From Dehalococcoidia bacterium (GTDB taxonomy: Bacteria; Chloroflexota; Dehalococcoidia; Dehalococcoidales; BS750m-G39): a stretch of DNA of 56,043 nucleotides. The stretch lies in NCBI GenBank assembly GCA_030608005.1, contig JAUWIX010000004.1:1-56043 (forward strand), given 5' to 3'. Position 1 is the first letter of the stretch, and each line of letters begins with the position of its first letter. Shown here piece after piece: positions 4,687-50,878 of this stretch. The translations under genes were made by a program, and so were the position numbers. The notes beneath the pieces were generated by a model. That model did no database searches. It was not told the DNA's origin and saw nothing but the letters and a program-made list of their open reading frames with translations.

Positions 4687-4862
4687 GGGGGAGTTTGAGA
4701 GGGGTTTCGCTTTCCTTTATAACCTATCCCCCTTACCCCCTTCCCTTACTAAGGGAAGGGGGAGTGAAAGCAAGAGAGGGGGCGAAGCCCCCTCTCTAAA
4801 ATCTCTTCCCCCTCTCCTTTTAAGGAGAGGGGGATTAAGGGGGGGAGGTTGATAAGCAATCT
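4687..4862. repeat. Modular hairpin element R1
   Basis: CCCCCTTCCCTT-act-AAGGGAAGGGGG hairpin, GAGGGGGCGAAGCCCCCTC hairpin, TCCCCCTCTCCTT/AAGGAGAGGGGGA hairpin, right terminus GGTTGATAAGCAATCT. Confidence 0.9.
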
Positions 4863-6030
4863 TAATAGCTTCCATTTAATACAAACCTGCCTCCATAGTA
4901 AAGCCCGGGCTGGAGAACTCCTGACGCCGCATGGCGTAGTCCCCACGCCGGTATTTCTACCCGTGGGGAGCCAGGGCGCAATTAAAACGCTGACCCCTGA
5001 AGAGGTTAAAGCTCTTGGGCTCGCTATGGTATTGGCTAACACCTACCATCTCTACCTGAGACCTGGCATAGGCATAATCGAGAAAATGGGAGGTTTGCAT
5101 AAGTTTATGAGTTGGGACCGGCCTATTCTTACTGACAGCGGTGGCTATCAGATATTTAGCCTGGCCCCGCTGCGCCAGGTCAACGATGAAGGGGTTATAT
5201 TCCGCTCTCACATTGATGGTAGCCAACATCATATTACCCCAGAGCTAATTATTCAGTTTCAGGAGACCCTTGGTGCTGATATTATTATGGCTCTAGATGA
5301 GTGTCCAGCATATTATGATAGCTTTGAAAAGGTAAACAGGGCAATGGACAGAACACATCGGTGGGCGGAGAGATGCCAGAAAGCTCAAAAACGCCATGAC
5401 CAGGCTCTATACGCTATTGTGCAGGGCGGCATCTTCCCTCAACTTCGGCGTCAATCGGCGGAATACCTTACTTCATTAGAATTTCCCGGTCACGCTATTG
5501 GCGGCTTGAGCCTTGGGGAACCCAAAGAGGTAACTCTAGCCATGATTGAAGAGACGGCGGCTTTGTTGCCGGAGAGTAAACCACGATATCTTATGGGGGT
5601 GGGCTCTCCAGAGGATATTATTGAGGCTGTAGCTAGAGGGATTGACATCTTTGATAGTGCCCTGCCTACCCGTGTAGCCCGAAATGGCGCCCTCTTTACC
5701 TGGCAGGGGAGGCGTAACATTGGAAATGCTGCCTATAGCCAGATGGAGCAGCCTATTGTTCCCGGCTGCGATTGCTATACCTGTCGTAATTTCTCAGCAG
5801 CTTATCTACACCACCTGTTCGGTTGTGACGAGCTATTAGCCTATAGATTAGCTACTATTCATAACCTGAGCTTCATAAGTAACTTAATGGGTAAAATAAG
5901 AAATGCCATTCAGGATGGCACCTTCCTCTCTTTTAAGGATAACTTCCTGACAAATTACCAGCCTACTGATGAGCAGATACGGCTCAGCCAAAAGCAGAAG
6001 TGGCTGGAAAGGCGCAACTTGAGCCAGTAG
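4849..6030 (+). CDS. tgt: tRNA-guanine transglycosylase (queuine tRNA-ribosyltransferase)
   Basis: TPVFLPVG, LANTYHL, TDSGGYQ, DECP, PRYLMGVG, zinc motif CDCYTC...H. Confidence 0.97.
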   Translation: MISNLNSFHLIQTCLHSKARAGELLTPHGVVPTPVFLPVGSQGAIKTLTPEEVKALGLAMVLANTYHLYLRPGIGIIEKMGGLHKFMSWDRPILTDSGGYQIFSLAPLRQVNDEGVIFRSHIDGSQHHITPELIIQFQETLGADIIMALDECPAYYDSFEKVNRAMDRTHRWAERCQKAQKRHDQALYAIVQGGIFPQLRRQSAEYLTSLEFPGHAIGGLSLGEPKEVTLAMIEETAALLPESKPRYLMGVGSPEDIIEAVARGIDIFDSALPTRVARNGALFTWQGRRNIGNAAYSQMEQPIVPGCDCYTCRNFSAAYLHHLFGCDELLAYRLATIHNLSFISNLMGKIRNAIQDGTFLSFKDNFLTNYQPTDEQIRLSQKQKWLERRNLSQ

Positions 6031-6044
6031 TTGATTAAACCCGG

Positions 6045-6278
6045 CTATATCTCCTCACCAACCGGGTCAACCCTCACCCCTCTGGAGATAGCCCAAGCAA
6101 TTCCAGCTTCAATATCCTTCTCCTCACCCTCAAGCTCCAGTTCTATCCAGCCTCTGTCCTCGGTGGCATCAGCCCGGTGAATATTGGTTGCCAGGTTGAA
6201 CTGCTGACCAATATTATAAATAATTGGCTCAGAGCTTACCTCTGGGCAAAAGGTAAGCATTACCCGCCGTTTTGCCAT
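6045..6278 (-). CDS. Stand-alone NIL domain protein
   Basis: 77 aa; EPIIY....F.L.TNIHRA...GWIELELEG pattern, similar to the NIL domain of the 8224-8634 product. Confidence 0.8.
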   Translation of the reverse strand: MAKRRVMLTFCPEVSSEPIIYNIGQQFNLATNIHRADATEDRGWIELELEGEEKDIEAGIAWAISRGVRVDPVGEEI

Positions 6279-7264
6279 TTCTGCCCCCTTTCTACCGGCA
6301 TTCCCATTTTATATAGGCGCTGCCCGATGAGCCTCGCTTCATTGATAATACCCTCAATGCTCTCTCTTACCGTGGGTATTTCATGTATTAATCCTACCAC
6401 CTGACCACAGGCAATAGTGGCATCATTGACATCACCGCTAATGTAGCTCCTTTTGCTTCTATCACCGCTTATCATCGGCAGGAGCTGTTCCAATGTAGCC
6501 CCTTTCTCTTCCATCTCCAGCACTCTTTGGGCGAAATCTGTCTTCATTACCCTGGCAGCATTTTTGATAGAACGCTCAATGATTAAGGTATCCGTTTCTC
6601 TAGCTTGTAGCAGCCACTGCACGATTTCGGGATGCAGGGCACATTCCTTGCTGACCATGAACCGAGTGCCCATAAGCACACCCTCAGCGCCCAGGGCTAA
6701 GGCAGCAATAAAGCCCCTGGCATCGGCAATACCTCCGCCGGCGATAACCGGGATGTTAACCGCACCTACAGAAATAGGGATAAGGACTAGGGAGGTTACA
6801 TCATCCATACCTGGGTGCCCAGCCGCCTCAAAGCCAACAATGGTTACTGCATCCACTCCCACTCGCTCCGCCGTTTTAGCATCTTTTACCCTTGCTACCT
6901 TGTGTATTATCTTCACCCCGGCATCCTTGAGTCGCTTCATATATGGCTCTGGGCTTCTCCCAGCGGTCTCAATAATCTTTACCCCTTCCTCAATGGCAAC
7001 ATCAATATACTCTTCGTAGTTTATCTGTTGCAAGGTTGGCAGCAAGGTGATATTTATGGCAAATGGTTTATCGGTCAGGCTTTTTGTCTTCTTAATCTCC
7101 TCTCGGAGTTCTTTGGCAGTGGAGAAGGTGAGTGCGGCAATAATGCCCAAGCCCCCAGCTTTAGAAACCGCTGCTACCAGCTCAGCCCGCGATAGCCATA
7201 GCATTGCCCCCTGGATTATAGGATATTCTATACCCAACATTTCGGTAATTCTGGTTCTAAACAC
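6260..7264 (-). CDS. Nitronate monooxygenase / FabK-like flavin oxidoreductase
   Basis: TRITEMLGIEYPIIQGAM, GFEAAGHPG, PVIAGGGIADARG, GVLMGTRF. Confidence 0.92.
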   Translation of the reverse strand: MFRTRITEMLGIEYPIIQGAMLWLSRAELVAAVSKAGGLGIIAALTFSTAKELREEIKKTKSLTDKPFAINITLLPTLQQINYEEYIDVAIEEGVKIIETAGRSPEPYMKRLKDAGVKIIHKVARVKDAKTAERVGVDAVTIVGFEAAGHPGMDDVTSLVLIPISVGAVNIPVIAGGGIADARGFIAALALGAEGVLMGTRFMVSKECALHPEIVQWLLQARETDTLIIERSIKNAARVMKTDFAQRVLEMEEKGATLEQLLPMISGDRSKRSYISGDVNDATIACGQVVGLIHEIPTVRESIEGIINEARLIGQRLYKMGMPVERGQKWQNGG

Positions 7265-7285
7265 AACCGCCCCCTATTCTATTAT

Positions 7286-7490
7286 AGATTGTTTACTAAC
7301 CCCTCACCCTTTATCCCTCTCCCCTTACATAAGGGGAGAGGGAAGAGATTCTAGAGAGGGGCTTCGCCCCTCTTAAACACCCCCAAACAAGATAAGGAGA
7401 GTCAAAGAGAGGCTTAGCCTCTCTTAAAAAATCATTTCCCCCTTCCCTTATTAAGGGAAGGGGGCAGGGGGATAGGTTGCTAAACAATCT
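7286..7490. repeat. Modular hairpin element R2 with complete terminal inverted repeats
   Basis: Left AGATTGTTTACTAACC and right GGTTGCTAAACAATCT (14/16 inverted match); two purine/pyrimidine hairpins and two GAGGGGCTTCGCCCCTC-type hairpins inside. Confidence 0.92.
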
Positions 7491-8220
7491 CTTCTATAGA
7501 CATTTGACAGAGCTTTACCTCACCCCAGAGTCCCACCTTATCATCCTTGATAATAATCATTCCCTTCAACCCATCAATACCCTGGGCGAATTCAATCCCA
7601 CTGGGGATATCGTTGGGCTGGGCAATCAGGTTGCCTATGGCAGTGGCGGCAGCATCAGCCAGAGCAGCTGATTTGGAAACCACTATAACTGCATCGGCTT
7701 TACCATAACTCAGAGAATGCCCCACTGTTCCAGAAGAGGTGCAAATGCCTAGCGGTGTATCCTGCCCATTGATTTCCAGACCAATCTTGCCAGTTAAGGG
7801 CGATTTTCCAGCGTAAATCCCTATTAGTCTTTTCCTCGAGCTCTTCAGATAGATATCGCCCCCGTTTTCTACAATAATCTCGGGGGAAAAGGCTAGAAGC
7901 TGGCTGCCAACAAACTCAGCTATAGCTCCAGCTACTGAAGCCATAGGACCAATTCCTACTTTCCTTGCTGATTCTGCCATCTCGCTTACAAGGGGAGGGG
8001 CATCATCACCGATGGTGACCGGCTCCAGAGAGGTGAGAAATGATGGATGTCGCTCAATATACCTTTCCAGGGTGTCACGATATTTCAATACTAGCTTAAG
8101 TGCTTTCCGCTTCAGGTTAGTCCGGGCGCGGATATATAAATCTGTCTCCTTTACCACCACATTGAAAGAGACTAAGTCTTTATCTTTAACCCAGTGGCGA
8201 TAGGCTCTTGGCTGATACAT
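7480..8220 (-). CDS. UPF0280 / ApbE-like family protein (COG2122)
   Basis: GPMASVAGAIAE, IVENGGDI, GICTSSGTVGHSLSYGKADA, ADAAATAIGN. Confidence 0.92.
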   Translation of the reverse strand: MYQPRAYRHWVKDKDLVSFNVVVKETDLYIRARTNLKRKALKLVLKYRDTLERYIERHPSFLTSLEPVTIGDDAPPLVSEMAESARKVGIGPMASVAGAIAEFVGSQLLAFSPEIIVENGGDIYLKSSRKRLIGIYAGKSPLTGKIGLEINGQDTPLGICTSSGTVGHSLSYGKADAVIVVSKSAALADAAATAIGNLIAQPNDIPSGIEFAQGIDGLKGMIIIKDDKVGLWGEVKLCQMSIEEIV

Positions 8221-8223
8221 GGA

Positions 8224-8634
8224 CTAGAAATGCACCTCCATAGCTCGTGGAGGGCAAGCCTTTATACATAGTCCACAAGCCACGCACTTTTCATTATGAA
8301 AGTCGACCTGCCTGGTTACGGGGTCAAGTTCAAAGGCGCCGGTGGGGCAAATAGTGATGCAGGCACCGCAATGGGTGCATCTTTCCTCATTGCGAATAAC
8401 ATTCTGGCTGAGTGATTGAATTCTCACCCCACTTTTAGTCAGATACCTGATACCTTTATCATATTCTTTCTGTTTCCCACTCAATTCCAATACCAGTAGC
8501 CCCTCCTCTTCAGGGGTAATTGAAGCTTTTAAAATATTAAATTCAAGGTCATAATCCTTAGCTAGCCGGCATACTATAGGATGCTCCACGACCCACTTTG
8601 GAAAATGTAGGACTATTCTCTTGGAAACAGCCAT
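8224..8634 (-). CDS. NIL domain plus 2[4Fe-4S] ferredoxin (Fe-S partner of aspartate-semialdehyde sulfurtransferase)
   Basis: N-terminal FNILKA NIL motif; CTHCGACITICP and CVACGLCIKACP. Confidence 0.92.
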   Translation of the reverse strand: MAVSKRIVLHFPKWVVEHPIVCRLAKDYDLEFNILKASITPEEEGLLVLELSGKQKEYDKGIRYLTKSGVRIQSLSQNVIRNEERCTHCGACITICPTGAFELDPVTRQVDFHNEKCVACGLCIKACPPRAMEVHF

Positions 8635-8665
8635 TTTTGTCTCCTTTCCCAGGACAGGGTGTTTG

Positions 8666-9871
8666 CTATTCTATGGGGCGTTCATTAAGTGGCTTAAGGG
8701 TTATGCCTGCTTCCACACCAGGTAGAGGTGCCACTGGCTCGGTTAGCAGGAACTTTCCACTCAGTATCCATCTCTTTAGAGTATTGGCAATTTCTACCGC
8801 CCTTGGGTAGCTGGACAGGGAGGCAGTAGGCACTTCTTTACCCTGGACTGTTACCCTTCCACTTTTTAATTGAGCATAACTGACTTCACCCAAGATGTCT
8901 GGTTTCAGATTGGGATAGGCATCAGAATAATCAACAATGGCGGAAAAAATCTCGGCATCAGTTACTGTAGTGTAGCCCAGGGTTTCTTCAGAGAGTATAG
9001 GAATAGGTACGCCGATTCCTACGGTTAGGGTGCAGCCATAGCCTAGCATGCTGGTTCCCATCAGCCATCTGGGGCTCATTTGCTTTAAATCGCCGATAAC
9101 AGAAAGTGCTCCTGCTCCTCTTTTGGGCACTCCCTTTTCGGTGCGAGGCACGTTCGGATTATGCTGAGTGCCATGCCAGGCGACAAAGCCTATTCCGCCG
9201 CCTAAGAATATCTTGGTGCCTATGCCAATGGTCTTGTAATAGGGGTCATTCAACAGTGGAGAGAGCTGTCCAGCGGTAGAATAATTAATATTACCTAGGT
9301 TTGCCCGTAACACGCCCATATAGGTATAGATTGTTTTACTTGAGGTATTTGCCGCCACATCATAATTCTGGTAAGCATTCCTGATATTAAATAGCACTGC
9401 CTCGTTGAGGTCTTTTATGTTAATCCAGGTCTCAAGCCGCTTCCTTGGATAGCAATCTGTGCCATAGGCGTTTGCCACCAGTCTGATATCCTTGCCAGCG
9501 ACAAGTTCCTCAATTACATGCCCACCCCCATAATTGAATTCGCCAGGATAGACTTTGTTTCTGGGGTCATCATCAGGGAGGGCATTGGCACCGATGAATA
9601 TATCTACTGCCGCCAACCCGGTATAAGCTGGGACATCATTAAGGTAGGCTCTGCCACCACCGAGCTTGATTCTTGGCTTAGAGTGTCCAATATTAAGATA
9701 GGCACCAGATGAACACATAGGACCGAAGGTGCCGGTGGTAACTACATCCACTTCCTGGGCTGCCTGCTTAATGCCCTTCTCTTTGGCAATATCTATTATC
9801 TCCTCAGCAGTAACTACTACCGCCTTTCCCTGCTTTATCTTCTCGTTTATTTCTGCGATTGTTTTTGCCAT
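8666..9871 (-). CDS. DUF39 homocysteine biosynthesis protein (L-aspartate semialdehyde sulfurtransferase), no CBS domains
   Basis: KTIAEINEKIK.GKAVVVTAEE, VDVVTTGTFGPMCSSG, YGGGHVIEELV, GQLSPLLNDP. Confidence 0.9.
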   Translation of the reverse strand: MAKTIAEINEKIKQGKAVVVTAEEIIDIAKEKGIKQAAQEVDVVTTGTFGPMCSSGAYLNIGHSKPRIKLGGGRAYLNDVPAYTGLAAVDIFIGANALPDDDPRNKVYPGEFNYGGGHVIEELVAGKDIRLVANAYGTDCYPRKRLETWINIKDLNEAVLFNIRNAYQNYDVAANTSSKTIYTYMGVLRANLGNINYSTAGQLSPLLNDPYYKTIGIGTKIFLGGGIGFVAWHGTQHNPNVPRTEKGVPKRGAGALSVIGDLKQMSPRWLMGTSMLGYGCTLTVGIGVPIPILSEETLGYTTVTDAEIFSAIVDYSDAYPNLKPDILGEVSYAQLKSGRVTVQGKEVPTASLSSYPRAVEIANTLKRWILSGKFLLTEPVAPLPGVEAGITLKPLNERPIE

Positions 9872-9880
9872 ATCTTCAAG

Positions 9881-9909
9881 ATGATAATATTAAACCGTAG
9901 GCTTGTCAA
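9881..9909 (-). promoter_or_regulatory. Sigma70-type promoter for the DUF39 operon
   Basis: TTGACA-N17-TATCAT on minus strand, 9 nt before the ATG. Confidence 0.7.
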
Positions 9910-9920
9910 TTTACCCATAG

Positions 9921-10152
9921 AGATTGGTTTATTAACCCCATCCCCCTTTATCCCCCTCCCTTAGATAAGGGAGGGGGAAAGAGAAGAAAGAGGGGGCTTC
10001 GCTCCCTCGAAGACTCCCCAATTAGGTATTTGGAGGCTTCGCCTCTCTGTGCCTCTCTGTTCTCTGGGGTGTTTAGGAGGGGCGCTAGCCCCTCTTAACA
10101 AAATACTTCCCCCTTCCCCTCCGAGGGGAAGGGGGTCAGGGGGATGGGGTCA
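9921..10152. repeat. Modular hairpin element R3
   Basis: Left terminus AGATTGGTTTATTAACC; hairpins TCCCCCTCCCTTA/TAAGGGAGGGGGA, GCTTCGC loops, GAGGGGCGCTAGCCCCTC, CCCCCTTCCCCTC/GAGGGGAAGGGGG. Confidence 0.9.
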
Positions 10153-10226
10153 ACGCCATAGAGAAACAAAATATAATAATCGGTGTCACCAATCTATCTG
10201 AACTAGCCCATTTTTTACTCCTTATG

Positions 10227-10255
10227 TTGAAGAACACCCCCTTATGAGCTATAAT
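10227..10255 (+). promoter_or_regulatory. Sigma70-type promoter for hicB (paralogue of the aspS promoter)
   Basis: TTGAAG-N17-TATAAT. Confidence 0.7.
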
Positions 10256-10277
10256 TAGCTATAAACAGGAGGTCAAT

Positions 10278-10511
10278 ATGCGCCATTCTATCAGGGCGTT
10301 TGTGCATAAGGGTGAGAACTATTATGTTGCCGAGTGCATGGAGATAGCGGTGGTCACCCAGGGTAAAACTCTGGATGAGACCATGGCAAATCTCCAGGAA
10401 GCTATTGCTCTGCATCTTGAGGGCGAGGACCTGGTAGATTTTGACCTTGCCCCTAACCCTTCCCTCCTAGTGACTCTCGAGTTGGAGCCCACGGTCTTAT
10501 TTCTACACTGA
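10278..10511 (+). CDS. hicB: HicB-family (UPF0150) antitoxin, orphan
   Basis: YVAEC....VVTQGKTLDE...NLQEAIALHLE; AGGAGG RBS; no hicA ORF seen adjacent. Confidence 0.85.
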   Translation: MRHSIRAFVHKGENYYVAECMEIAVVTQGKTLDETMANLQEAIALHLEGEDLVDFDLAPNPSLLVTLELEPTVLFLH

Positions 10512-10532
10512 TTAGTCTGCGGTCATTTATTA

Positions 10533-10629
10533 AGGGAGTTTTAGAGGGGCGAAGCCCCTCTTTTTAATATCCTTCCCCCTCTCCTTGAAAGGAGAGGGGG
10601 ATAAAGGGGGTAAGGTTGGTAAACAATCT
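10533..10629. repeat. Modular hairpin element R4
   Basis: GAGGGGCGAAGCCCCTC, TCCCCCTCTCCTT/AAGGAGAGGGGGA, right terminus GGTTGGTAAACAATCT. Confidence 0.9.
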
Positions 10630-10645
10630 CATTAGCCCCCGCAAG

Positions 10646-10674
10646 TTGAAGAGCCCCCTGTCATAAGCTATAAT
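10646..10674 (+). promoter_or_regulatory. Sigma70-type promoter for aspS-tig
   Basis: TTGAAG-N17-TATAAT, then AGGAGG RBS and TTG start. Confidence 0.72.
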
Positions 10675-10701
10675 CAGCTATAATCTATATAGGAGGCGAT
10701 T

Positions 10702-12498
10702 TTGCTCAAAAGTCATAGCTGTGGTGAGCTAAGTAGAAAGGATGTTGGTGCCGAGGTAACCTTGGCTGGTTGGGTAGACCGCCGCCGAGACCACGGGAGA
10801 CTGATATTCATTGACCTGCGAGATAGAGAGGGCGTAGTTCAGGTGGTGTTCAATCCAGAAACATCAGCCTCTTGCCATAAAGTAGCCAGTGAGATGCGTA
10901 ATGAATATGTGGTTACGGTCAGTGGTGAGGTTGCCCTTCGCCCCCCGGGAACCGAGAACCCTAAATTGCCCACCGGTGATATTGAGGTTATTGCTCATAA
11001 TACCGTTATACTTAATCCATCAAAGACTCCTCCTTTCTATATAAATGAAGACATTGAAGTGGAAGAAAACCTGCGGCTCAAGTATCGCTACCTTGACCTG
11101 CGCCGGGCTCGGATGAAGGAGAACCTGCTCCTTCGCCACCAGGCAGTGAAGTTTATTCGCGATTTTCTGGATGCTAGGGGGTTTATTGAGGTAGAAACAC
11201 CAATCCTGATTAAGAGCACCCCTGAGGGGGCTCGTGATTACCTGGTACCCAGTCGAATTCATCCGGGAAAGTTCTATGCCCTTCCCCAGTCGCCACAGCA
11301 ACTTAAACAGCTATTGATGGTAGCCGGGGTGGAGAAGTATTTTCAAATAGCCAGATGCTTTCGTGATGAGGATACACGGGCTGACCGTCAGCCTGAGTTC
11401 ACCCAGCTTGACTTGGAGATGAGCTTTGTCGAGGAGGAGGATATTTTGAACCTGATGGAGGAATTATTCACCTCTATGGTGGAGACGATTAAACCTGAAA
11501 TGCGGGTGCTCAAGCCTTTCCCTCGCCTTACCTATGCTGAGGCAATGGAGCGCTACGGTACGGATAAGCCTGACTTGAGATTTGGTCTGGAGATAGGAGA
11601 TTTAACAGACATTGCTGCTCAATCTGACTTCTCTATCTTTCGTTCTGCCATCGCTGATGGGGGTAAGGTGAAGGGCATATGCGCCCCTGGCTGTGGCAAT
11701 TATACCCGAAGCCAGCTTGAGGAACTAAATAGGCTGGCGCAGAGCCTGGGAGCTGGGGGCTTGGTCACTATGTCACTGGGCGCCGCTGGCGGCGGTTTGA
11801 ATGATTTAACCATTGAAATGGTAAAGTCTGTTGCTGCTAGATTTCTAACCCTAGACCAAATAAAGCAGATGGCACATCGTTTAGGAGCAGATATGGGAGA
11901 CCTTCTGCTTATTATTGCCGGCAAACCTGGGCTAGTTGATATGACATTAAGCGGACTGCGTCAGGAGGTGGGACAGCGGCTTAAGCTGGCTGCCCCTAAT
12001 CTATTCGCCTTCGCTTTTATTCAGAATTTTCCGTTACTGAGATGGGATGAAGAGGCAGGACGATGGGATTCAGAGCATCATCCCTTTACTGCACCTAGGG
12101 ATGAGGATGTGCCCTTGCTGGACAGCGCCCCGGGAAAGGTACGCGGCAAGCATTATGACCTAGTATGCAATGGGTATGAAATAGGTGGTGGTAGCCTTAG
12201 GATTTACACCAGTGAGCTTCAGAAGAAGCTCTTTAAGTTGCTGGGCTATAGTGATGAGGAGGTTGAGGAGCGCTTCGGGCACATGCTTGAGGCTTTTCAG
12301 TATGGGGCTCCACCTCATGGTGGCATAGCCCTGGGTATCGACCGCATTGTGATGCTACTGGCGGGGGAAGAAACCATCAGGGAAGTTATTGCCTTTCCCA
12401 AGAACCAGAGTGCTGCCGATTTAACCTTTAATGCCCCTTCACCGGTTAGCGAACAGCAGCTAGCTGAATTACATCTGCGTCTGCGGGAGGAAAGGTGA
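10702..12498 (+). CDS. aspS: Aspartate--tRNA ligase (likely non-discriminating Asp/Asn type)
   Basis: [42 protein letters not shown]; the DH and PG signatures are typical of ND-AspRS. Confidence 0.97.
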
Positions 12499-13793
12499 AA
12501 GTAACCAGAGAGAAAATAGAAAATAGCCAGGCATTTCTTAGAATTGAGATGGAGCCTGCTGAGGTAGAGGAATCCTTGGAGGATTCTTATCGCCGCCTGG
12601 CTAGGAAAACGAATATCCCCGGCTTTCGTAAAGGAAAGGTGCCACGAGCTGTGCTAGAACGCTATATAGGTAGAGATAGCCTCCTTGAGGATGCCCTAAA
12701 TAATCTGCTTCCTCAAGCTTATGAGAAGGCTATCAAGGAGCAAGAGATTGAAGCTATTGCCAGCCCATCTATTGAAATAGCTCAAACTGACCCTGTGGTA
12801 TTTAAGGCGACAGTGCCGCTAAAGCCTACAATTGAGCTTGGCGACTACCATAACATTCAACTTACCCCAGAACCTGTAGAACTAACCGAGAATGATGTCA
12901 ACACCGTAGTAGAGCAGCTACGCCGCCAGCATGCCACTTGGGAGTCTGTAGAACGCCCAGCAAACTTTGATGATTTGGTGGTGTTAGATATTGAAAGCCA
13001 TATTGAGGAAAAGCCGTTCATCAATCAACAGGGAGTTCAATATCAAATCCTCCATGACCACCCCTTCCCTGTGCCGGGGTTTGCCGAGCAGTTGCCTGGG
13101 ATGAAAGGCGGTGAGGAGAAAGAGTTCAAACTCCAACTCCCCAAAGATTATCCTAGAGGTGAGCTGGCAGAGAAGGAGGCTTGGTTTAAGGTAAGGGTTA
13201 CTGAAATAAAGCAGCAGCGGCTTCCCAAGCTAAACAAGGAATTTGCCCATCTGGTTAACCCCGAGTTCAAGACCCTGGCTTCACTGCGGAAACAAGTCTC
13301 TACTAACTTACGACTCATGGCTGAGGAGAGAGCCAGGAGAGAATTTGAGGAGCAGATAATTGACGCAGTGGTTGATATCAGCCAAGTAGAATTCCCGCCA
13401 GTTTTGGCTGAGATGGAAGTTGACCGACTCCTTGACCAACAGGCGAGGCAATTGCAGATGACTGGTAGAGGGCTGGAAGAATATCTTAGCAGGGTTAATA
13501 AAACAGAGGAGGAACTACGGGAAGAGCTGCGTCCATTAGCCACCAAGAGGGTTACCCGCTCCCTTGTGTTAGGCAGAATTGCCGAACAGGAAAAGATTGA
13601 GGTCGGTGATTCTGAGATAAGTGCTGAGCTGGAAAATATGGCGCAAACTGCCACCAAGAATAAGGATGAGGTGCAGAAACTTCTAAACTCTCCTCAAGCT
13701 CGTAGCTCAATTGAGCAATTGTTAACTACACGAAAAACTATACAGCGACTGGTAGAAATAGCTAGAGGTTCAACAGATGACCAGGAGAAATAA
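12495..13793 (+). CDS. tig: Trigger factor
   Basis: [10 protein letters not shown] ribosome-binding motif; FKBP-like PGFAEQL.GMK.GEEK. Confidence 0.96.
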
Positions 13794-15837: not shown

Positions 15838-15901
15838 GTTATAATTGTGTAATAGTGAGCACTTGCCTTGAACTATATAAAAGCTGGTGGGAGGACAAAA
15901 A

Positions 15902-16504
15902 ATGAATATCCAACCGATGAATGTAATACCTATGGTAATTGAGAGTGGTGCCAGAGGGGAGCGAGCCTTCGATATATACTCGCTCCTGCTGAGAGAGCGC
16001 ATTGTCATGTTGGGCATGCCGATTAATGACCAGGTGGCTAATGTTATTATTGCCCAGCTTCTCTACCTTGAGCGAGAGGACCCGGACAAAGACATAAGCC
16101 TTTACATTCACTGCCCTGGTGGCATCATTTCCAGTGGTCTCGCTATTTATGACACCATGCAGCTCATACGCCCTGATGTTTCCACCATTTGTGTTGGGCT
16201 GGCGGCTAGCATGGGGACTTTGCTTCTTTGTGCTGGGGCTAAAGGCAAACGCTATGCCCTACCTAACTCCACTATACACCTGCATCAGGCGTTTGGTGGT
16301 GCTCAGGGACAGGCAGCCGATGTAGAAATTGCTGCCCGAGAGATTATGCGTATGCAAGAGCTAATCCGGGGCATTTTATCTAAGCACACCGGTCAACCAC
16401 TGGAGAAAATAGTCCATGATACTGACCGGGATTTCTACCTTAACCCTGAGCAAGCGGTGGAGTATGGGATTGTGGATGAAATCCTCAGCAAGCCACAAAA
16501 ATAG
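15902..16504 (+). CDS. clpP: ATP-dependent Clp protease proteolytic subunit
   Basis: [22 protein letters not shown] (Ser), HLHQ (His), DTDRD (Asp). Confidence 0.97.
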
Positions 16505-16513
16505 CTATAGCTG

Positions 16514-17467
16514 CTAGTTATAAAGCTCTCGGTAGTGCTGAGCCAGTTCACCCAAGGTGGGGAAGCCCTGCCTTGTGCCCAGCTCGGCGATAGAGAGACG
16601 AGCTGCAATGTCACCTAGAAGTCCACATTCCCTCAGCCCCTTATCTTTAAGTAGCCCGTAGAGGAATCCGGCAGCAAAAGCATCTCCGGCGCCAGTAGTA
16701 TCCACTTCAGCCCCTATATCTCGGCTAGGGGGAATTACATATTCATTCTCGGCATCTCTGATATAGCCGACGGCGGTGGTTTTTCTAAGCCTGCTCCCTT
16801 TGCCCAGGGTAACCACAACATTCTGGCAGCCCTGCCTGAGACAGCTTTCTGCCCCGACGATAACATCCTCCCCGGTCAATTGCCGTATCTCATTCTGGTT
16901 AATGAACAGGATGTAGGTTCTGCCTAAGAGCGGGGCGAGAGTCTTGAGCCCCTTAATGGCATATAGTGCGCCCGGGGCAAAACTGAGCTTGACTGATAAA
17001 TCTAGCCTGTCTATCAATTCCAGCAATACCTTGAACTGCCTATCATCAGCAAAGGAAGAGAGATGAAGTATCCTTGCCTGATTTATATAGCTCAAGTCCA
17101 GGTCATCTATGGTGAGTAAATTATTGGCACCGGGTAGGACATAGAGGGAGCGCCTACCCAGCCTATCACTAAGGCATAATACCGAGCCAGTTTTTGCCCC
17201 GTGTTTAACCCTGATTTGACCGCTCTCCACCCCTACCGCTTGAAAATCCTGGAGCAATATTTTGCCTTCAGCGTCATCGCCAATAACGCCGCAAAAGCCG
17301 GCGCTTATCCCAAGTTTCGCCAAACCGTAGATGGTATTGGCGGCTGAGCCACCGGGAGACGATTCGGCCTCGTTTACCACCGCCTCCCCATCATCAAGGA
17401 TGCGCTCTACCTTATATATATGGTCTATATTCAGTGCCCCCAGCCCAACTACTTCAATATTAGACAT
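16514..17467 (-). CDS. PfkB family carbohydrate/nucleoside kinase
   Basis: PGGSAANT, VDTTGAGDAFAAGFL; ATG at 17467 (the upstream ORF extension is repeat-derived). Confidence 0.93.
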   Translation of the reverse strand: MSNIEVVGLGALNIDHIYKVERILDDGEAVVNEAESSPGGSAANTIYGLAKLGISAGFCGVIGDDAEGKILLQDFQAVGVESGQIRVKHGAKTGSVLCLSDRLGRRSLYVLPGANNLLTIDDLDLSYINQARILHLSSFADDRQFKVLLELIDRLDLSVKLSFAPGALYAIKGLKTLAPLLGRTYILFINQNEIRQLTGEDVIVGAESCLRQGCQNVVVTLGKGSRLRKTTAVGYIRDAENEYVIPPSRDIGAEVDTTGAGDAFAAGFLYGLLKDKGLRECGLLGDIAARLSIAELGTRQGFPTLGELAQHYRELYN

Positions 17468-17470
17468 ATG

Positions 17471-17560
17471 AACCCTATCCCCCTTAATCCCCCTTCCCCT
17501 TACCAAGGGGAAGGGGAAGGATAGTTTCTTTAGAGGGGCTTCGCCCCTCTAAAACTCCCA
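17471..17560. repeat. Modular hairpin element R5
   Basis: AACCCTATCCCCCTTAATCCCCCTTCCCCTT-acc-AAGGGGAAGGGG and AGAGGGGCTTCGCCCCTCT. Confidence 0.9.
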
Positions 17561-17707
17561 ATCTTGTTGTTATGCTTTTTATGCAGAGTGTCGTTTGAAG
17601 CGATTAGAGTGTGGCACTACCTACCGTGTGAAGCTAGTCTCTTACGCTGATAGGTGCTTTGTCTAGCAGAGGGTAGCCAAAGCAAATAAAATTTTGATCA
17701 TTGGGCA

Positions 17708-18250
17708 CTATCGTGTTCTTCCTTTCTCGCCCAATATGATATTAGTCCACCCCTCTAAGCTACGGTCTCCCTTTTGGTTCCATTGGGGTATCTTCAATTT
17801 CTTGGATAGTTCTTCTGTAGGCAACAGAATCAAACGTTGCATAAGAGGAGCAATAGATTTCTGTCTGGAGGTTTCTCTAATTTGAGGAAGACCGCAATCC
17901 GATGCAAAAGCCTTGACATCACGTATGGTGGGCAAAACGCTCTTCGTCTGTAGAGCATCGTAGAAAGCTGAGATAAGTTCATACTTCTGTGGTTCGGTCT
18001 CTTGGAGAAGCGCTAAGGTTTTCTCTATCAATGTTACAGTTTTTTTCTTAGTGGCTTTTCCCGTAATTGGGGTCTCTCTGGCTATCCTCGCACCAGTTGA
18101 TAACAGATGAGTTAGTTTTTTCATAAGGTCAGTTGATCGACTGGAATTTGCCAGAATTTCAAAAGGTTCTGGCCCGTACTTCCTTATGAGCCTTGCCAAA
18201 TCTACCAATAAATCTAACTCAGGGCGGTCTTTTTCAAGGGGGGTTTTCAT
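17708..18250 (-). CDS. Hypothetical protein, partner of ParA-like ATPase
   Basis: 180-aa ORF, start overlaps the ParA stop (ATGA); no recognised motif. Confidence 0.7.
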   Translation of the reverse strand: MKTPLEKDRPELDLLVDLARLIRKYGPEPFEILANSSRSTDLMKKLTHLLSTGARIARETPITGKATKKKTVTLIEKTLALLQETEPQKYELISAFYDALQTKSVLPTIRDVKAFASDCGLPQIRETSRQKSIAPLMQRLILLPTEELSKKLKIPQWNQKGDRSLEGWTNIILGEKGRTR

Positions 18251-19095: not shown

Positions 19096-19118
19096 TAACC
19101 CCCTTTGAATACCCTATC

Positions 19119-19161
19119 CTAGACTTTCCATAAGTCTAGTCAATATCCCTTTTACTGTCAA
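19119..19161 (-). promoter_or_regulatory. ParA cassette promoter with overlapping palindromic operator
   Basis: TTGACA-N17-TAGACT; perfect inverted repeat CTAGACTT-N5-AAGTCTAG (19119-19139) overlaps the -10. Confidence 0.65.
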
Positions 19162-19245
19162 ATTATTCAGACGTTTGGTTAAACAAATAATCGACTCTAC
19201 GCTTTACGCTCTTCCCTTTATAAAGGACATATTCCTATAATAAAC

Positions 19246-24274: not shown

Positions 24275-24278
24275 AGAA

Positions 24279-29428: not shown

Positions 29429-29432
29429 TCGG

Positions 29433-29787
29433 GATTGTTTATCCACCTCACCCCCTTAATCCCCCTCTCCATGATATGGATATGTATTCCTATCATGAGG
29501 GGGAGGACTGTTTTAAGAGGGGCTTCGCCCCTCTTCGACCCTTCTTTAAACCTTATCTCATACCAAGAGGAAGGTAATATCTTTGAAAGGCTGTAGCCCT
29601 TCTTAGTAAAACCCCCACTTTTATTTAGGGGAAATATGAATCTTTAAGGGAAGTATGAAGGGGCGTTAGCCCCTTCAAAAAATACAATTCCCCTTCCCCT
29701 TACTAAGGGGAAGGGGATAAAGGGGATAGGGTTTCCAATTATCAAAAGATAAAAAGTGGAGAGCCGGAAAGAGGCGAAGCCTCTCTT
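29433..29787. repeat. Modular hairpin element R6 (long composite)
   Basis: Left terminus GATTGTTTATCCACC; long-loop hairpin shared with R9; several GCTTCGC/GCGAAGC hairpins; CCCCTTCCCCTTA/TAAGGGGAAGGGG. Confidence 0.88.
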
Positions 29788-29839
29788 AGCCAGCTCATTA
29801 GGAGGACGGAGCTTCTTATCTCAGAATCTCAGAATAGGG

Positions 29840-34707: not shown

Positions 34708-34721
34708 AAAGTCGTTTATCA

Positions 34722-34972
34722 AGGGTAGATTGAAGGGGCTAATACAGGGTCCCCACAAAAACCTTGTTTTTGTGGGGTGAAAATCCCCTTCAAAAGTAAT
34801 CCCTCCCTCTCCTTACTCTGGAGTAATAATTAAGGGGAGTTTTAGAGGGACTACGCCCCTCTAAAGAAATTACCTTCCCCTTATCAAGGGGAAGGGGGAT
34901 AAAGAAGGGGAAGGGGGATAAAGGGGGATAGGGTTACCAAATAAAAAACCTAAAAGGGGGTGAGGTTGACCC
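34722..34972. repeat. Modular hairpin element R7 with nested palindrome and 19-bp tandem duplication
   Basis: Flanked by AAGGAGTAA direct repeats (34699-34707, 34976-34984); AAGGGGAAGGGGGATAAAG twice (34886-34923). Confidence 0.88.
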
Positions 34973-34989
34973 CCAAAGGAGTAAGCCAA

Positions 34990-37972: not shown

Positions 37973-37974
37973 TT

Positions 37975-44786: not shown

Positions 44787-45697
44787 CTGTGGATGGCATA
44801 CTAAATATCAATAAGCCCTGGGGCAAGACTTCCTTCAGTATTGTCTCCCTGGTGAAGCGGCTGAGCGGGGAGAGGCGCGTTGGGCATGCTGGTACCCTCG
44901 ACCCGGCAGCTACGGGTGTTTTACCTGTTTGCCTAGGTCAGGGGACGCGTATTATCCAATTTTTACTAGATGCTACCAAGGCTTATCGGGCTCAGATTGA
45001 ATTTGGTGTGGCTACGGACACCTATGATGCCACTGGTAGCATCACCAGTAAGGGAGACCCCTCTGGGATTAGCCGAGAGCGATTGCTGTCAGCACTCGCT
45101 TTATTCACGGGCGAAATCCAGCAGACTCCTCCAATGTATAGTGCTGTGAAGCATGGTGGTAAGCCACTTTATGAATTGGCACGCTCCGGTATCGAGGTTG
45201 AGAGGAGAAGCAGGCTGACTTGGGTCTATCACTTGGAGCTTATAGACTGGCAACCGCCTGTAGCTACTATAGAGGTGGAGTGTGGTAAGGGCACCTATAT
45301 CCGCGCAATAGCTCATGATTTAGGGCAACTTCTGGGTTGTGGCGCTAATTTGAAGAGCCTGAGCCGCTTGAGGTGTGGCTTGTTCGGTATTGAGGACGCA
45401 GTTTCAGTGCCCCAGCTTGAGGATGCCTTCCGCTATGGCTACTGGCAACACCTTGTCTATCCTATAGATATTGTGCTTTCCCATTGGGCGGCTATGGTGG
45501 TCGGTGATGCCACTGAAAAAGATATAAGGAACGGGCGCCCTTTGGTCTTTGAGAGGGATGATAGTTTGCCCAGGTCTTCTTATGGTGATCACTGCCGTGT
45601 CTATACCCGTGATGGTCGCTTTTTGGGTGTGCTATGCTTCAACTCAGAAGGGGGGCAGTGGCAACCGGAGAAGGTTTTTAGAGGGAGAGTAGAGTAA
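44783..45697 (+). CDS. truB: tRNA pseudouridine(55) synthase
   Basis: VGHAGTLDP.ATGVL, PPMYSA, CGKGTYIR. Confidence 0.96.
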   Translation: MTVDGILNINKPWGKTSFSIVSLVKRLSGERRVGHAGTLDPAATGVLPVCLGQGTRIIQFLLDATKAYRAQIEFGVATDTYDATGSITSKGDPSGISRERLLSALALFTGEIQQTPPMYSAVKHGGKPLYELARSGIEVERRSRLTWVYHLELIDWQPPVATIEVECGKGTYIRAIAHDLGQLLGCGANLKSLSRLRCGLFGIEDAVSVPQLEDAFRYGYWQHLVYPIDIVLSHWAAMVVGDATEKDIRNGRPLVFERDDSLPRSSYGDHCRVYTRDGRFLGVLCFNSEGGQWQPEKVFRGRVE

Positions 45698-45786
45698 GAG
45701 AGGGGCTTCGCCCCTCTCTAAAAACTCCTTCCCCCTCTCCAAGAATGGAGAGGGGGATAAAGGGGGCGAGGTTGACAAACAATATC
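45682..45786. repeat. Modular hairpin element R8
   Basis: AGAGAGGGGCTTCGCCCCTCTCT, TCCCCCTCTCCA/TGGAGAGGGGGA, right terminus GGTTGACAAACAATAT. Confidence 0.9.
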
Positions 45787-45858
45787 TTTAACAGGTCTTG
45801 ACAGCTTGCGTATAATAGGGGTATAGTTCAGCTGATACTAATAAGGAGGTGATTTGAA

Positions 45859-48531: not shown

Positions 48532-48636
48532 GCAAAAGGTGGAGGTAGTTCGGTTAATACCGTTTCAGGAAAATTACGGTCTAAAGCAAAGTTATCCAGA
48601 GTTCGTAGCGCTATAGCCTATCGCCTTACTGAACCA

Positions 48637-49185
48637 GTGGTGCGGGTTTTGGTCAGGACACCGGTAACACCCGGCGTCATAACCTGGCTTGGTTTTATAC
48701 TAGCCCTTGGCGCTGCGGCACTTGTTATTACCGCACACCTTTTTGCCGCTGGCTGGGTGGTGATTATTGCTGGTTTTTTTGATATCCTGGATGGGGCACT
48801 GGCTCGTCGCATTGAGCAAGCTACCCCTTTTGGCGCTGTCCTTGACTCCACACTCGACCGTTTATCCGAGGCGGTGCTGCTACTTGCTATTTTAGTGTTA
48901 TACCGCGGGGAACCATGGGTGGTTTTGCTGGTTTTCCTTGCCTTGCTTGGCTCTCTGTTGGTGAGCTATATCAGAGCTAGAGCAGAGGCAGTAGGCTTGG
49001 AGTGTCAGGTGGGATTATTCACTCGACCAGAGAGGGTTGTTGTGCTGGCGTTAGGTCTTTTACTAAGTCACATTGCCAATGCCTTAATTATTGCCCTGAC
49101 TATTATAGTGGTATTCAGCTTTTTCACCGCTAGTCAGAGGTTAGTTTATGTGTGGCAGCAAAGAGAAAAACCGTGTAGCTATTAG
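48637..49185 (+). CDS. CDP-alcohol phosphatidyltransferase (PIP synthase-like); start uncertain
   Basis: DILDGALAR...FGAVLDSTLDR motif, SYIRARAE, RPER. Confidence 0.9.
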   Translation: MVRVLVRTPVTPGVITWLGFILALGAAALVITAHLFAAGWVVIIAGFFDILDGALARRIEQATPFGAVLDSTLDRLSEAVLLLAILVLYRGEPWVVLLVFLALLGSLLVSYIRARAEAVGLECQVGLFTRPERVVVLALGLLLSHIANALIIALTIIVVFSFFTASQRLVYVWQQREKPCSY

Positions 49186-49244
49186 CCGCTTTTATTTATA
49201 GTGCTGTTTATGTTATAAGAAAAGTAAAGCTTAGAGGAGGAATA

Positions 49245-50528
49245 ATGCCGGTTATTGCTATTATTGGGGCTCAATGGGGAGATGAAGGGAAGGGCAAGGT
49301 GGTTGACCTGCTTGCTCAGAAAGCAAGGGTGGTAGTCCGTTTTTCCGGCGGTGATAATGCTGGGCATTCCGTGGTTAACCCCTATGGTGAGTTTGGTTTG
49401 CACCTTATCCCCTCTGGCATTTTTTCTCCCCAGGTTGTTTGCATTATTGGTAATGGTGTGGTGATTAACCCCAGAGTGCTAATTGATGAGATAGAGCTGC
49501 TTAACCAGCGTGGTGTGGATACCTCAAGGCTATTCATCAGTGACCGGGCTAACCTGGTTATGCCCTATCATATCCTCCTTGATGGTTTGGAGGAGGAGGC
49601 GCGAGGTGGCAAGGCACTGGGTACAACACGCAAGGGTGTAGGTCCTGCCTTTGCTGATAAGGCAGCTAGGTTGGGTATTAGAACCGGCGACCTTTTAGAT
49701 AAAGAGGCGTTGATAGAGCGACTCCGTTCTATCCTTGACTACAAGAACACTATTTTGACCAAAATTTATGGGGTAAGCCCGCTATCACTGGATGAAGTCT
49801 ATGCTCAGTATTGCCGGTATGGAGAGCGTCTGGCGCCTTATATTCGGGAGACAACTATAATGCTGGAGGAGGCATTGAGCCGGGGGGAGCTGGTCCTGTT
49901 AGAGGGTGCTCAAGGAACTTTACTTGACCCCGATTTCGGCACTTATCCCTATACTACCTCGTCCTCACCGCTGGCGGGGGGAGGTTGCTTGGGTGCCGGT
50001 CTGGGTCCTACCAGGATTAATCGCATTCTAGGTGTGTTTAAGGCTTACTGCACCAGGGTGGGCAGTGGTCCGATGCCCACTGAACTGAGGGATGAAACCG
50101 GCGACCTGATTCGGGAAAGGGCTCATGAGTATGGCACTACTACCGGCAGGCCTCGCCGCTGCGGCTGGTTTGATGCTGTTGCCGCTCGCTTTAGCACCAG
50201 GATTAATGGCTTTACCGGGGCGGCAATTACCCGCCTTGATATCCTTGATATCTTGCCTCGTCTGAAGATATGTGTAGCCTACCAACTGGATGGGCAGACA
50301 ATTGATTATTTCCCGGCCAGCGTAGCTGCCCTAGCCAGATGTCAACCTATCTATGAGGAGCTACCCGGGTGGCAGGCTGCTACCACCGATATTAGAAAGT
50401 ATGAGCATTTACCCCTTGAGGCTCGCCAGTATGTAGCCCGACTGGAAGAGCTTATTTCCTGCCCGGTTAACCTTATCTCTGTGGGAGCAGGGCGAGAGCA
50501 AACCATCGAGAAGGTGCCTATCTTATAG
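49245..50528 (+). CDS. purA: Adenylosuccinate synthetase
   Basis: GAQWGDEGKGK, EGAQG, GTYPY.TSS, EYGTTTGRPRRCGW. Confidence 0.97.
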   Translation: MPVIAIIGAQWGDEGKGKVVDLLAQKARVVVRFSGGDNAGHSVVNPYGEFGLHLIPSGIFSPQVVCIIGNGVVINPRVLIDEIELLNQRGVDTSRLFISDRANLVMPYHILLDGLEEEARGGKALGTTRKGVGPAFADKAARLGIRTGDLLDKEALIERLRSILDYKNTILTKIYGVSPLSLDEVYAQYCRYGERLAPYIRETTIMLEEALSRGELVLLEGAQGTLLDPDFGTYPYTTSSSPLAGGGCLGAGLGPTRINRILGVFKAYCTRVGSGPMPTELRDETGDLIRERAHEYGTTTGRPRRCGWFDAVAARFSTRINGFTGAAITRLDILDILPRLKICVAYQLDGQTIDYFPASVAALARCQPIYEELPGWQAATTDIRKYEHLPLEARQYVARLEELISCPVNLISVGAGREQTIEKVPIL

Positions 50529-50878
50529 GCTGTTTATCAACCTATCCCCCTGACCCCCTTCCCTTAATAAGGGAAGGGGGAATCTAGGTAAGAGAGGGGC
50601 GGAGCCCCTCTCTATAATCTCTCCCTCCTTTCCCTTTGATAATGAGCCTAACTTAATAGGGTGTTTAAGAGGGGCGCTAGCCCCTCTTCTATAAATACTT
50701 TCCCTCTCATGGTAGGAATACATATCCATATCATGGAGAGAGTAAATACGGAAGGAGAGTCAAAGAGAGGCGAAGCCTCCCTTATATAATTAATTCTCCC
50801 TTCCTTATCAAGGGAGGGAGATAAAGAGGGAGGGTTACCGAATAGAAACTTAAAGGGGGTGAGGTTAAGTGAAAATCT
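50527..50878. repeat. Modular hairpin element R9 (long composite) filling the whole purA-dapA convergent gap
   Basis: Left AGGCTGTTTATCAACC begins in the purA stop; right end ...AAAATCT abuts the dapA stop; hairpins with GGA, GCTA and GAA loops. Confidence 0.9.

Follow-up and report, generated by a model that had tools for sequence, protein, structure and literature searches.

The stretch of DNA analysed here (the window) comprises 56,043 nucleotides, positions 1 to 56,043 of contig JAUWIX010000004.1 in the Dehalococcoidia bacterium assembly GCA_030608005.1 (order Dehalococcoidales), and is contig 7 of that assembly, designated G000 below (1,119,275 nt in 38 contigs, 87% complete). Apart from a XerC/D-type recombinase and a methyltransferase, its genes encode housekeeping functions only. 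Nine loci between 4687 and 50878 had been noticed in a preliminary description as hairpin elements assembled from the same parts in different numbers and orientations. All nine were inspected and each part was found at each locus, but the parts are not freely combined. A single unit of about 100 nt underlies all nine loci, consisting of a leader, a hairpin A, a spacer, a hairpin B, a G-run and a terminus (GGTTnnTAAACAATCT), in an order that is identical in every copy in an alignment of 14 window units. Units occur alone or as inverted dimers (153-254 nt) with their termini outward; they are non-coding and multi-copy. The combinatorial look results from mirroring of this one unit and from local duplications and deletions of its palindromic modules. 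[quoted passage not shown]

The leader of the unit (AAGGGGAGTTTA) is followed by hairpin A, a G/C stem of 8-10 bp with a GAA or TTC loop, by an A/T-rich spacer of about 12 nt, and by hairpin B, a 12-bp stem whose 5′ arm is all pyrimidine and whose 3′ arm is all purine. The G-run (TAAAGGGGG) leads into the terminus, (G/T)GAGGTTGnTAAACAATCTC, which as an inverted outer pair is written GAGATTGTTTAnnAACC ... GGTTnnTAAACAATCTC. The clearest unit (10533-10631) has the leader AAGGGAGTTTTA, the hairpin A AGAGGGGC-GAA-GCCCCTCT, the hairpin B TTCCCCCTCTCC-loop-GGAGAGGGGGA and the terminus TAAGGTTGGTAAACAATCT. The hairpin A pattern GAGRGGC-N3-GCCYCTC, with at most one mismatch, occurs ten times in the window (0.04 expected from shuffles), and the terminus GGTTNNTAAACAATCT, with at most two mismatches, eight times (0.41 expected); seven of the terminus matches are at the loci, and the eighth, at 46831, is probably a chance occurrence. 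In dimers, GGTTnnTAAACAATCT is found at both ends as a terminal inverted repeat, the two copies of which pair with each other in the predicted fold. The predicted folds have z-scores of -4.3 to -6.5 for single units and of -8.7 for a dimer.

Four of the loci lie in the first fifth of the window. The first (4687..4863) is an inverted dimer in which a unit pointing left (<, 4711-4805) and a unit pointing right (>, 4767-4863) have one central hairpin A in common, an arrangement of about 157 nt that is the commonest dimer layout; a degenerate leader and a hairpin A remnant (4687-4710) precede it, and the acyl-CoA dehydrogenase gene takes its TGA stop from the left edge of the locus. The second (7284..7492) is a full inverted dimer with two A hairpins (< 7284-7383, > 7395-7492) and a DNA fold of -55.3 kcal/mol, the one with the z-score of -8.7. 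Its termini were correctly singled out in the preliminary description as a true inverted pair: 7286-7301 (-) and 7475-7490 (+) are exact terminal inverted repeats with 0 mismatches each. The stop codon of an ORF at 7480-8220 (-) lies inside its right terminus. The third (9922..10154) is an inverted dimer with a wider centre (< 9922-10020, > 10065-10154, the latter with a degenerate terminus) and an extra A-like hairpin between its two units. The fourth (10533..10631, +) is the single complete unit described above, the top-scoring copy of the genome (90.2 bits; fold z -4.3), located upstream of an aspS promoter-like site (10646-10674). The motif of that site, TTGAAG-17-TATAAT, is also found at 10227-10255, ahead of an ORF of 77 amino acids (10278-10511) between the third and fourth loci. 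This ORF has a weak, sub-threshold match to DUF7387 and is HicB-antitoxin-like by eye; the block 10155-10700 is missing in the related genome G010.

The remaining five loci are more varied. A single unit at 17467..17559 (-) has a truncated terminus that abuts the start codon of a ribokinase-like gene (16514-17506, -). The sixth locus, 29433-29787 in the preliminary description, does belong to the family but resolves into two separate units and an extra A-like hairpin: a single unit at 29431..29542 (-), with an enlarged loop and an insert in hairpin B (29470-29500), and, within 29647..29788 (+), a single unit (29647-29742) followed by a lone A-like hairpin (29758-29788). Between porC and the next por gene is a composite insert (34708..34975, +) with a left terminus-like end, a hairpin that does not belong to the family (34735-34790), a unit > in which the B arm and the G-run are duplicated (34833-34945), and a second terminus module (34950-34975). 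A single complete unit at 45689..45788 (+; fold z -6.5) replaces the last truB codons and ends 12 nt upstream of the -35 box of an ino1 promoter-like site. Finally, the cluster between the convergent genes purA and dapA (50525..50879) consists of a unit < (50525-50618), a partial unit > (50658-50708), a unit > (50753-50849) and an extra terminus module (50851-50879), and its left terminus is overlapped by the purA stop codon.

Two further observations concern variant forms. The same 51-nt segment is found in hairpin B of two units (29454-29504 and 50701-50751, 86% complementary) and includes a palindromic loop insert of about 29 nt; these units appear to represent a subfamily with an enlarged B hairpin. 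There is also a second type of palindromic repeat, with arms CTTCCCACCCACCC and GGGTGGGTGGGGG around A-like hairpins. In G001 (contig C43) it occupies the site orthologous to window 9920-10640, which is held in G000 by the main family, and in G000 it often abuts unit leaders, for example those of single units at C13:54280, C27:28679 and C10:82.

A nhmmer profile built from the 14 window units recovered exactly the known loci in the window and nothing else. In the whole of G000 it gave 333 matches on 36 of 38 contigs, with E-values down to 5e-26, which correspond to 287 non-overlapping units at 192 loci with a total length of 24,483 nt (2.2% of the genome). The spacing of one locus per 5.8 kb agrees with the estimate of about one per 6 kb made from the window, and units are largely intergenic genome-wide as well: crude ORF-based genes cover 87% of G000 yet include only 9.7% of unit bases, about 90% of which are therefore outside genes, so that units make up approximately 15% of the non-coding DNA. 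For one repeat family to hold this much of the scarce intergenic DNA is notable in the streamlined 0.8-2 Mb genomes of uncultured Dehalococcoidia. The 192 loci include 116 single units and 50 <> dimers. Junctions of the <> type number 69 and those of the >< type seven; an overlap of 20-40 nt at 43 of the former means that their two units have one central hairpin A in common. As an independent replicate, 400 kb of G010 contain 11 <> dimers and no >< dimers.

With a 103-nt unit as query, matches were found in 35 of 41 related genomes, all of 0.8-2 Mb, and the unit is present in all 24 of the sampled genomes of the same family and, within the order, in 10 of 16 other families. Across the class its occurrence is patchy: in an evenly spread sample, 26 of 301 genomes gave matches, 21 of them outside the order and some at 85-90% identity. 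One family (f10) has no units in any of ten genomes, most of which are closed, single-contig assemblies. An exact-pattern scan of public genome contigs found at least 116 stretches, and among the 80 stretches listed nearly all are labelled as metagenome-assembled genomes (MAGs) of Dehalococcoidales, Dehalococcoidia or Chloroflexota. Metagenome contigs from four DNA runs of one study end at units and give chimeric joints; the repeat is very abundant in those metagenomes and causes assembly breaks, which is a practical problem. In the same four runs, summed contig depth over window 3500-19500 is approximately 10-40 times higher in bins with units than in their neighbours (e.g. 424 versus about 12).

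Units are also carried by ten IMG/VR contigs. One of these (L232) encodes portal, major capsid and adaptor proteins, and the same ORF layout is found in three others (L235, L237, L238). A homologous head module is located on contig 25 of G000 (L240, approximately 3.0-11.1 kb), bracketed by clusters of units and followed by ordinary genes. It contains a late-activator-like gene and genes for a portal, a major head protein and an adaptor, with no terminase or tail genes among the ORFs scanned; possible identities are a cryptic prophage, a capsid-forming island and a cluster resembling a gene transfer agent. In four phage-like contigs a unit fills the gap from the adaptor stop codon to the next ATG, with the G-run and GAGGT 5-8 nt before the ATG; the head module of G000 contig 25 has no unit at the adaptor gap, so occupancy varies here again. 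Annotated phage and plasmid collections gave no unit match. Phage-like contigs are a possible vehicle for the spread of units between orders, and units are of practical use as a lineage marker linking such contigs to their hosts.

Gene order is conserved across the family, so orthologous junctions can be compared, and at seven window junctions both empty and filled alleles occur across genera. At truB|ino1, a unit match is found in G000 and in one of 16 relatives (G004); in G009 (90%-identical) and G001 the junction is a short unrelated spacer, and G004 has at the same point a palindrome that is differently built, flanked by TATTTA repeats. The porC|porD junction is empty in all four relatives compared (G001, G007, G009, G010), and the 268-nt insert of G000 is flanked there by a 9-bp direct repeat, AAGGAGTAA (34699-34707 and 34976-34984), that restores the porC stop codon and the ribosome-binding site of the next gene. 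The junction of the acyl-CoA dehydrogenase gene with tgt (4687-4863) is empty in G001 and G010, has the same dimer in G007 and has a single unit in G004. The site upstream of fabK (7284-7492) is unoccupied in G009 and occupied in G007, and in G000 and G007 alike the insert has a copy of TTCTAT on either side. In G010, the block 9921-10631 is represented by 22 nt, the dprA|tRNA spacer is 17 nt long, and the unit 17467-17559, which is present in G007, is absent. The purA|dapA junction ranges from about 23 nt with no unit (G018) to the four units of G000; some unit match is found there in seven of 16 relatives, varying in number and orientation. Gain and loss at orthologous sites is thus well supported and favours mobility. 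Beside the unit at 17467-17559 is a 1.78-kb segment (17462-19244) with a gene for a ParA-like ATPase (18247-19095, -) and an ORF of 180 amino acids that has no family match; the segment is absent in G010 (gap 0 nt), and G007 has no more than the unit and 146 nt.

Inserts compared with empty sites have flanking repeats of 6, 6 and 9 bp. Perfect 5-bp flanking repeats (GAAAT, ATACA, TAAGG) were found at three of the 21 complete dimers in all the DNA analysed, where approximately 0.02 would be expected (permutation p 0.0008), and these grow to 6-8 bp when terminal bases are counted. The repeats suggest target duplication, of a length that is not fixed. As for age, 99 full units of G000 have a mean pairwise identity of 63% and a median identity to the nearest neighbour of 82%, and only two of 4851 pairs are at least 95% identical; the suggestion that the family is still spreading was not borne out. 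At equal sample size, a G000 unit is as close to G010 units (0.761) as to other G000 units (0.773), and the same variants of hairpin A are present in both genomes. The family and its subfamilies are therefore older than the genera, yet the insertion sites are not in common.

Single units between tandem genes point their terminus toward the start of the downstream gene in a ratio of 51:17 in G000 (p 4e-5) and 19:4 in the 400 kb of G010 (p 0.003). This bias tracks gene direction and not GC-skew arms; a replication-strand bias of units, considered as another possibility, was not seen in the GC-skew arm comparison. Among 133 intact termini, 95 face a gene start (median 57 nt) and 38 face a stop codon (median -2 nt), and site comparisons identified three genes whose last codons have given way to the element, which also provides the stop. 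Raw locus counts are uneven (54 loci in 113 divergent regions versus 14 in 115 convergent regions), but per kb of spare intergenic DNA the density of units is 1.3-1.6 whatever the gene context. By this measure divergent spacers are no longer enriched, and the idea of promoter targeting was therefore dropped. Convergent spacers are not enriched (14-15 loci in 115 regions of G000, none in 50 of G010). A promoter inside the unit was also rejected, as only one unit within 4000-18500 reaches the threshold of the promoter scanner.

Hairpin B, read from the terminus, has at least five U within the next 10 nt in 48 of 97 units, and in the other direction in none of 97. With this U-rich tract it would resemble an intrinsic terminator when read from the terminus inward and not the other way, and single units might for that reason be kept mainly with the terminus toward the downstream gene start; judged from sequence, a one-way terminator is a plausible cause of the orientation rule, although units are not enriched between convergent genes. 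Anti-oriented single units are located in longer spacers than co-oriented ones (median 293 versus 108 nt, n = 12 and 39). A rival to the MITE-like reading is that units are primarily cis-regulatory RNA leaders of the GA-cis type that would be cotranscribed with the downstream gene and control its translation or stability, for example by hiding or presenting Shine-Dalgarno-like G-runs, and are multi-copy since many genes use such leaders. The co-orientation and the termini that face gene starts at a short distance would fit such a role, as would the pairing in hairpin B of a C-run resembling an anti-Shine-Dalgarno sequence with a G-run resembling a Shine-Dalgarno sequence, and the units that directly precede an ATG in four phage-like contigs. 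On the other hand, the termini that face stop codons and the loci between convergent genes do not fit, the neighbouring genes are unrelated housekeeping genes whose orthologs in sister genera have no unit, and density follows spare intergenic length. The commonest complex form is, moreover, a palindromic dimer that reads alike on both strands.

Comparison with Rfam brought GA-cis into consideration. At gathering scores, only four tRNAs were found in the window; at relaxed thresholds the best non-tRNA match on the unit is GA-cis (RF02987), all 88 model positions of which align to the leader, hairpin A, spacer, hairpin B and GAUA. Window copies score 29.7 (unit 10533-10631), 24.4 and 23.0 bits and the best copy in G000 scores 32.1 bits, all below the threshold of 34.7. 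In the 41 relatives there are 15 matches with E ≤ 0.001, including one ordinary unit of G010 that passes the threshold with 36.0 bits; none of 14 control genomes has a match, and none of 151 genomes of the class reaches the threshold. The core of hairpin A in the model, GGGGCGAAGCCCC, is identical to that of the unit. In contrast, the outer stem of the model is not formed in units, and the model has no G-run, terminus or dimers. The model treats GA-cis as RNA, whereas the pair statistics of the unit, described below, point to DNA. Judging from these alignments, GA-cis probably describes a sister subfamily within this kind of repeat. The motif reportedly comes from the 2017 screen of Weinberg et al., whose main text makes no mention of it and whose supplements may bear on it. 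The Rfam 15 paper has it only as a table entry. Literature searches returned no description of such repeats in Dehalococcoidia; three general reviews bear on bacterial MITEs (PMC3184786, PMC2229807, PMC10969869). The family had been called possibly undescribed, which agrees with the failure of every window copy to reach the GA-cis threshold but has to be qualified by the end-to-end alignment and by the copy that passes in one relative.

Both hairpins are conserved as structures. In 85 of the 99 full units the stem of hairpin A is perfect over at least 7 bp; its arm occurs as GAGGGGC (44), GAGAGGC (20), AGGGGGC (7), AAGGGGC (6) and further variants, and the 3′ arm matches in every case. With 23 different arms, hairpin B reaches ten or more pairs in 93 of 99 units, and it alternates between C-G and T-A at seven positions. 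The arms of the same copy pair at 7.96 of 8 positions in hairpin A, versus 7.26 with arms from other copies, with no shuffle reaching the observed value, and at 11.82 of 12 in hairpin B, versus 9.95 for swapped arms (maximum 10.32 in 1000 shuffles). Stems therefore keep their pairing while their arms vary, as had been noticed in the window, and the conclusion that structure is under selection was right. What is selected, however, seems to be DNA and not RNA: in the 1140 cells of hairpin B, T-G pairs (12) are about as rare as non-pairs (at least 14), and since RNA would be expected to tolerate G-U, their near absence suggests a constraint at the level of DNA or of both strands. This observation and the sub-threshold scores in the window count against leaders that function as RNA, and that explanation is considered unlikely despite the full-length alignment of GA-cis.

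Units also have the potential to adopt other DNA structures. A canonical G-quadruplex motif formed by the 3′ arm of hairpin B, the G-run and the GGG of the terminus is predicted in 52 of the 99 full units, on one strand only, and 117 of the 181 canonical G-quadruplex motifs of G000 are located at units; hairpin, triplex or quadruplex formation may be envisaged from the sequence. Units might also be structural DNA sites that the host maintains by selection (protein-binding sites, one-way insulators, or quadruplex or triplex sites), copied by ordinary recombination and not by transposition. Conservation of the sequence over class-level distances (85-90% identity between best copies), the equal similarity of units within and between G000 and G010, the resemblance to one-way terminators and the maintenance of palindromy at the DNA level are all compatible with such sites. 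A fixed local role is nevertheless difficult to reconcile with the almost complete turnover of orthologous occupancy between genera. Also against such sites are the lack of units in close relatives that have closed genomes (family f10), the truncation of gene ends by elements, and the presence of terminal inverted repeats and flanking direct repeats. The chance that units are of this nature is estimated to be small.

The preliminary description had noted that no mobiliser is visible, and none was found in either the window or the assembled genome. Among G000, G010, G002, G008 and G001, DDE_Tnp_1 is found only in G010 (two copies), rve only in G008 (one copy), and IS110-type transposases in G010 and G008 (two each); DDE_3, IS256, the TnpB Zn-ribbon and ISL3 were not found in any of the five. 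Genes located between inverted termini were rejected as candidates. In G000 these are, by eye, RimI-, NuoD-, fumarate-hydratase-, spermidine-synthase- and GTP-cyclohydrolase-like; at other loci they encode a CAP-domain protein, a 77-amino-acid DUF7387-like ORF and an ORF of 181 amino acids. The last (L061, 2283-2828, on a public Dehalococcoidales contig) has no Pfam match and is PD-(D/E)xK nuclease-like by eye. Inverted units flank it in one contig and a unit adjoins the ORF in G004 (other loci L179 and L180), but G000 lacks it and only two of the 41 relatives have it. Neither G000 nor the loci retrieved yielded a coding element with the termini at its ends.

Mobilisation in trans by RAYT or other HUH enzymes, as of repetitive extragenic palindromes (REPs), had been put forward as a precedent. 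Units could be REP- or REPIN-like elements whose hairpins are read by an HUH enzyme of the Y1 or RAYT type, with dimers as the mobile form and the enzyme lost, unassembled or phage-borne. Such an enzyme would account for the inverted dimer as the preferred form (50 loci) and for hairpins that are strictly Watson-Crick, as expected if a folded single strand is read, and most copies have no clear target duplications. However, Y1_Tnp (PF01797; RAYT, IS200) is absent from all 30 genomes of the family (G000 and 29 others), several of which are 90-97% complete and one of which is in nine contigs, and although it is found in 47 of 301 genomes of the order, units flank only one of 30 Y1 loci that were fetched. 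In that one (L125, 1276-2133 of contig C89 of G030), a Y1_Tnp gene (116.8 bits in Pfam, 136 codons) is located exactly between an inverted pair of units. IS200-like end hairpins belong to the gene itself, a 13-nt stretch is triplicated in tandem (1843-1885), and the HUH and tyrosine motifs look altered by eye. With its own end hairpins, and as the lone flanked case, it reads as an IS200/IS605-type insert in a dimer and was rejected as the mover; no transposase examined is consistently flanked by copies. Several inserts are flanked by short direct repeats, and units of about 100 nt with two different hairpins differ from REPs, for which the classic criterion is an imperfect palindrome of 20-40 nt with a conserved 5′ foot of the GTAG type. 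No such foot is conserved in the consensus with its flanks, as had been remarked of the window copies. An HUH enzyme as the mover is therefore considered improbable.

The MITE-like element favoured here would in its complete form consist of two inverted units with termini outward and, most often, one hairpin A in common. A transposase encoded elsewhere, outside the assembly, would move it into A/T-rich sites, in some cases leaving repeats of 5-9 bp. Once the element is inserted, its palindromic modules could slip or recombine with one another and so produce half elements, short forms centred on hairpin B and duplicated modules; together with the near identity of hairpin B to its own reverse complement, this may explain why the family looked combinatorial. 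Copies would persist wherever spare intergenic DNA exists, subject to the orientation filter. Among the side effects are the stop codons that termini give to truncated gene ends and, in the phage-like contigs, a G-run and GAGGT at the position expected of a ribosome-binding site.

Several findings weigh against this interpretation. G000 has none of the eight Pfam transposase families tested and no autonomous partner was found; the few insertion sequence (IS) copies of four relatives are not bounded by the termini, and no parent IS with matching ends was identified. Inverted termini in G000 enclose housekeeping genes. The length of the flanking repeats varies (5-9 bp), they are absent or decayed in 18 of 21 dimers, a per-position scan for them gave only a weak diagonal signal, and several inserts also deleted flanking bases. 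The copies are old. A DDE transposase does not need internal hairpins kept by compensatory CG/TA changes, and hairpins kept so strictly are rather characteristic of enzymes reading single-stranded hairpins. U-tracts do not differ in strength between co-oriented and anti-oriented units (4.33 versus 4.17, p 0.99, n = 39 and 12); U-tracts that are no weaker in anti-oriented copies weaken the case for a terminator filter. G000 is only 87% complete and repeats break assemblies; incompleteness of MAGs and the loss of short contigs flanked by repeats could hide a mover.

It is also conceivable, though rather unlikely, that the family spreads with no dedicated transposase, its palindromic, G-quadruplex-prone modules stalling or folding at replication and being copied to new A/T-rich sites by template switching or repair of the host at microhomologies. 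Spread of this kind would explain variable repeats of 5-9 bp, small deletions at insertion sites, strict palindromy at the DNA level, and why 30 streamlined genomes show no mover even though occupancy turns over between genera. The phage-like capsid islands with units could then ferry them between orders.

As a MITE-like element, the family has counterparts with internal structure in other bacteria, such as Correia elements in Neisseria, ERIC/RU in enterobacteria and RUP in pneumococci. Like these, it is non-coding, multi-copy and intergenic, is 100-250 nt long, has terminal inverted repeats and short flanking direct repeats, folds into long hairpins, would be moved in trans, and affects neighbouring genes through stops, terminators or ribosome-binding sites. 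It differs from them in that no matching parent IS was found, the length of flanking repeats is variable, compensatory change maintains two internal hairpins, and its distribution is class-wide and not confined to a single genus or species. The modular boxA-boxB(n)-boxC repeats known as BOX elements of Streptococcus pneumoniae are likewise strongly folded and intergenic, with modules in variable numbers and no known dedicated transposase. They have no sequence relation to the present family, in which one ordered unit is mirrored into dimers and variable module numbers can be explained by slippage between palindromic modules. With REPs, bacterial interspersed mosaic elements (BIMEs) and REPINs, the family has in common extragenic palindromes, a preference for inverted doublets, compensatory evolution of stems and a high copy number. 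Unlike these, its unit is 3-5 times longer and comprises two distinct hairpins and a G-run, with terminal inverted repeats and some target duplications, and unlike REP/RAYT systems it lacks a conserved GTAG foot, and no RAYT was found in any of 30 genomes of the family. On present evidence the family is not a new kind of system. With its missing mover and its hairpins kept at the DNA level, it is a reasonable test case for the persistence of small palindromic elements. Units change gene ends, separate genes of operons and precede many housekeeping genes with a strong orientation rule, and may plausibly underlie regulatory differences among genera whose gene order is otherwise conserved.

Other features of the window include a segment of low G+C content (24001-26160, 0.39 versus approximately 0.48 elsewhere) with an adenine-specific DNA methyltransferase-like gene (25243-26160, -). 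An ORF of 330 amino acids with no family match (24279-25271, -) is located between this gene and that of the XerC/D-type recombinase (23354-24274, -). The segment may be a small acquired restriction-modification island. At the start of the window, the 5′ part of an alanine--tRNA ligase-like ORF that runs off its edge has 90 nt duplicated in tandem (1-90 and 91-180, 94% identical); a further 41-nt repeat (175-215 and 256-296) is found in the same 5′ part.

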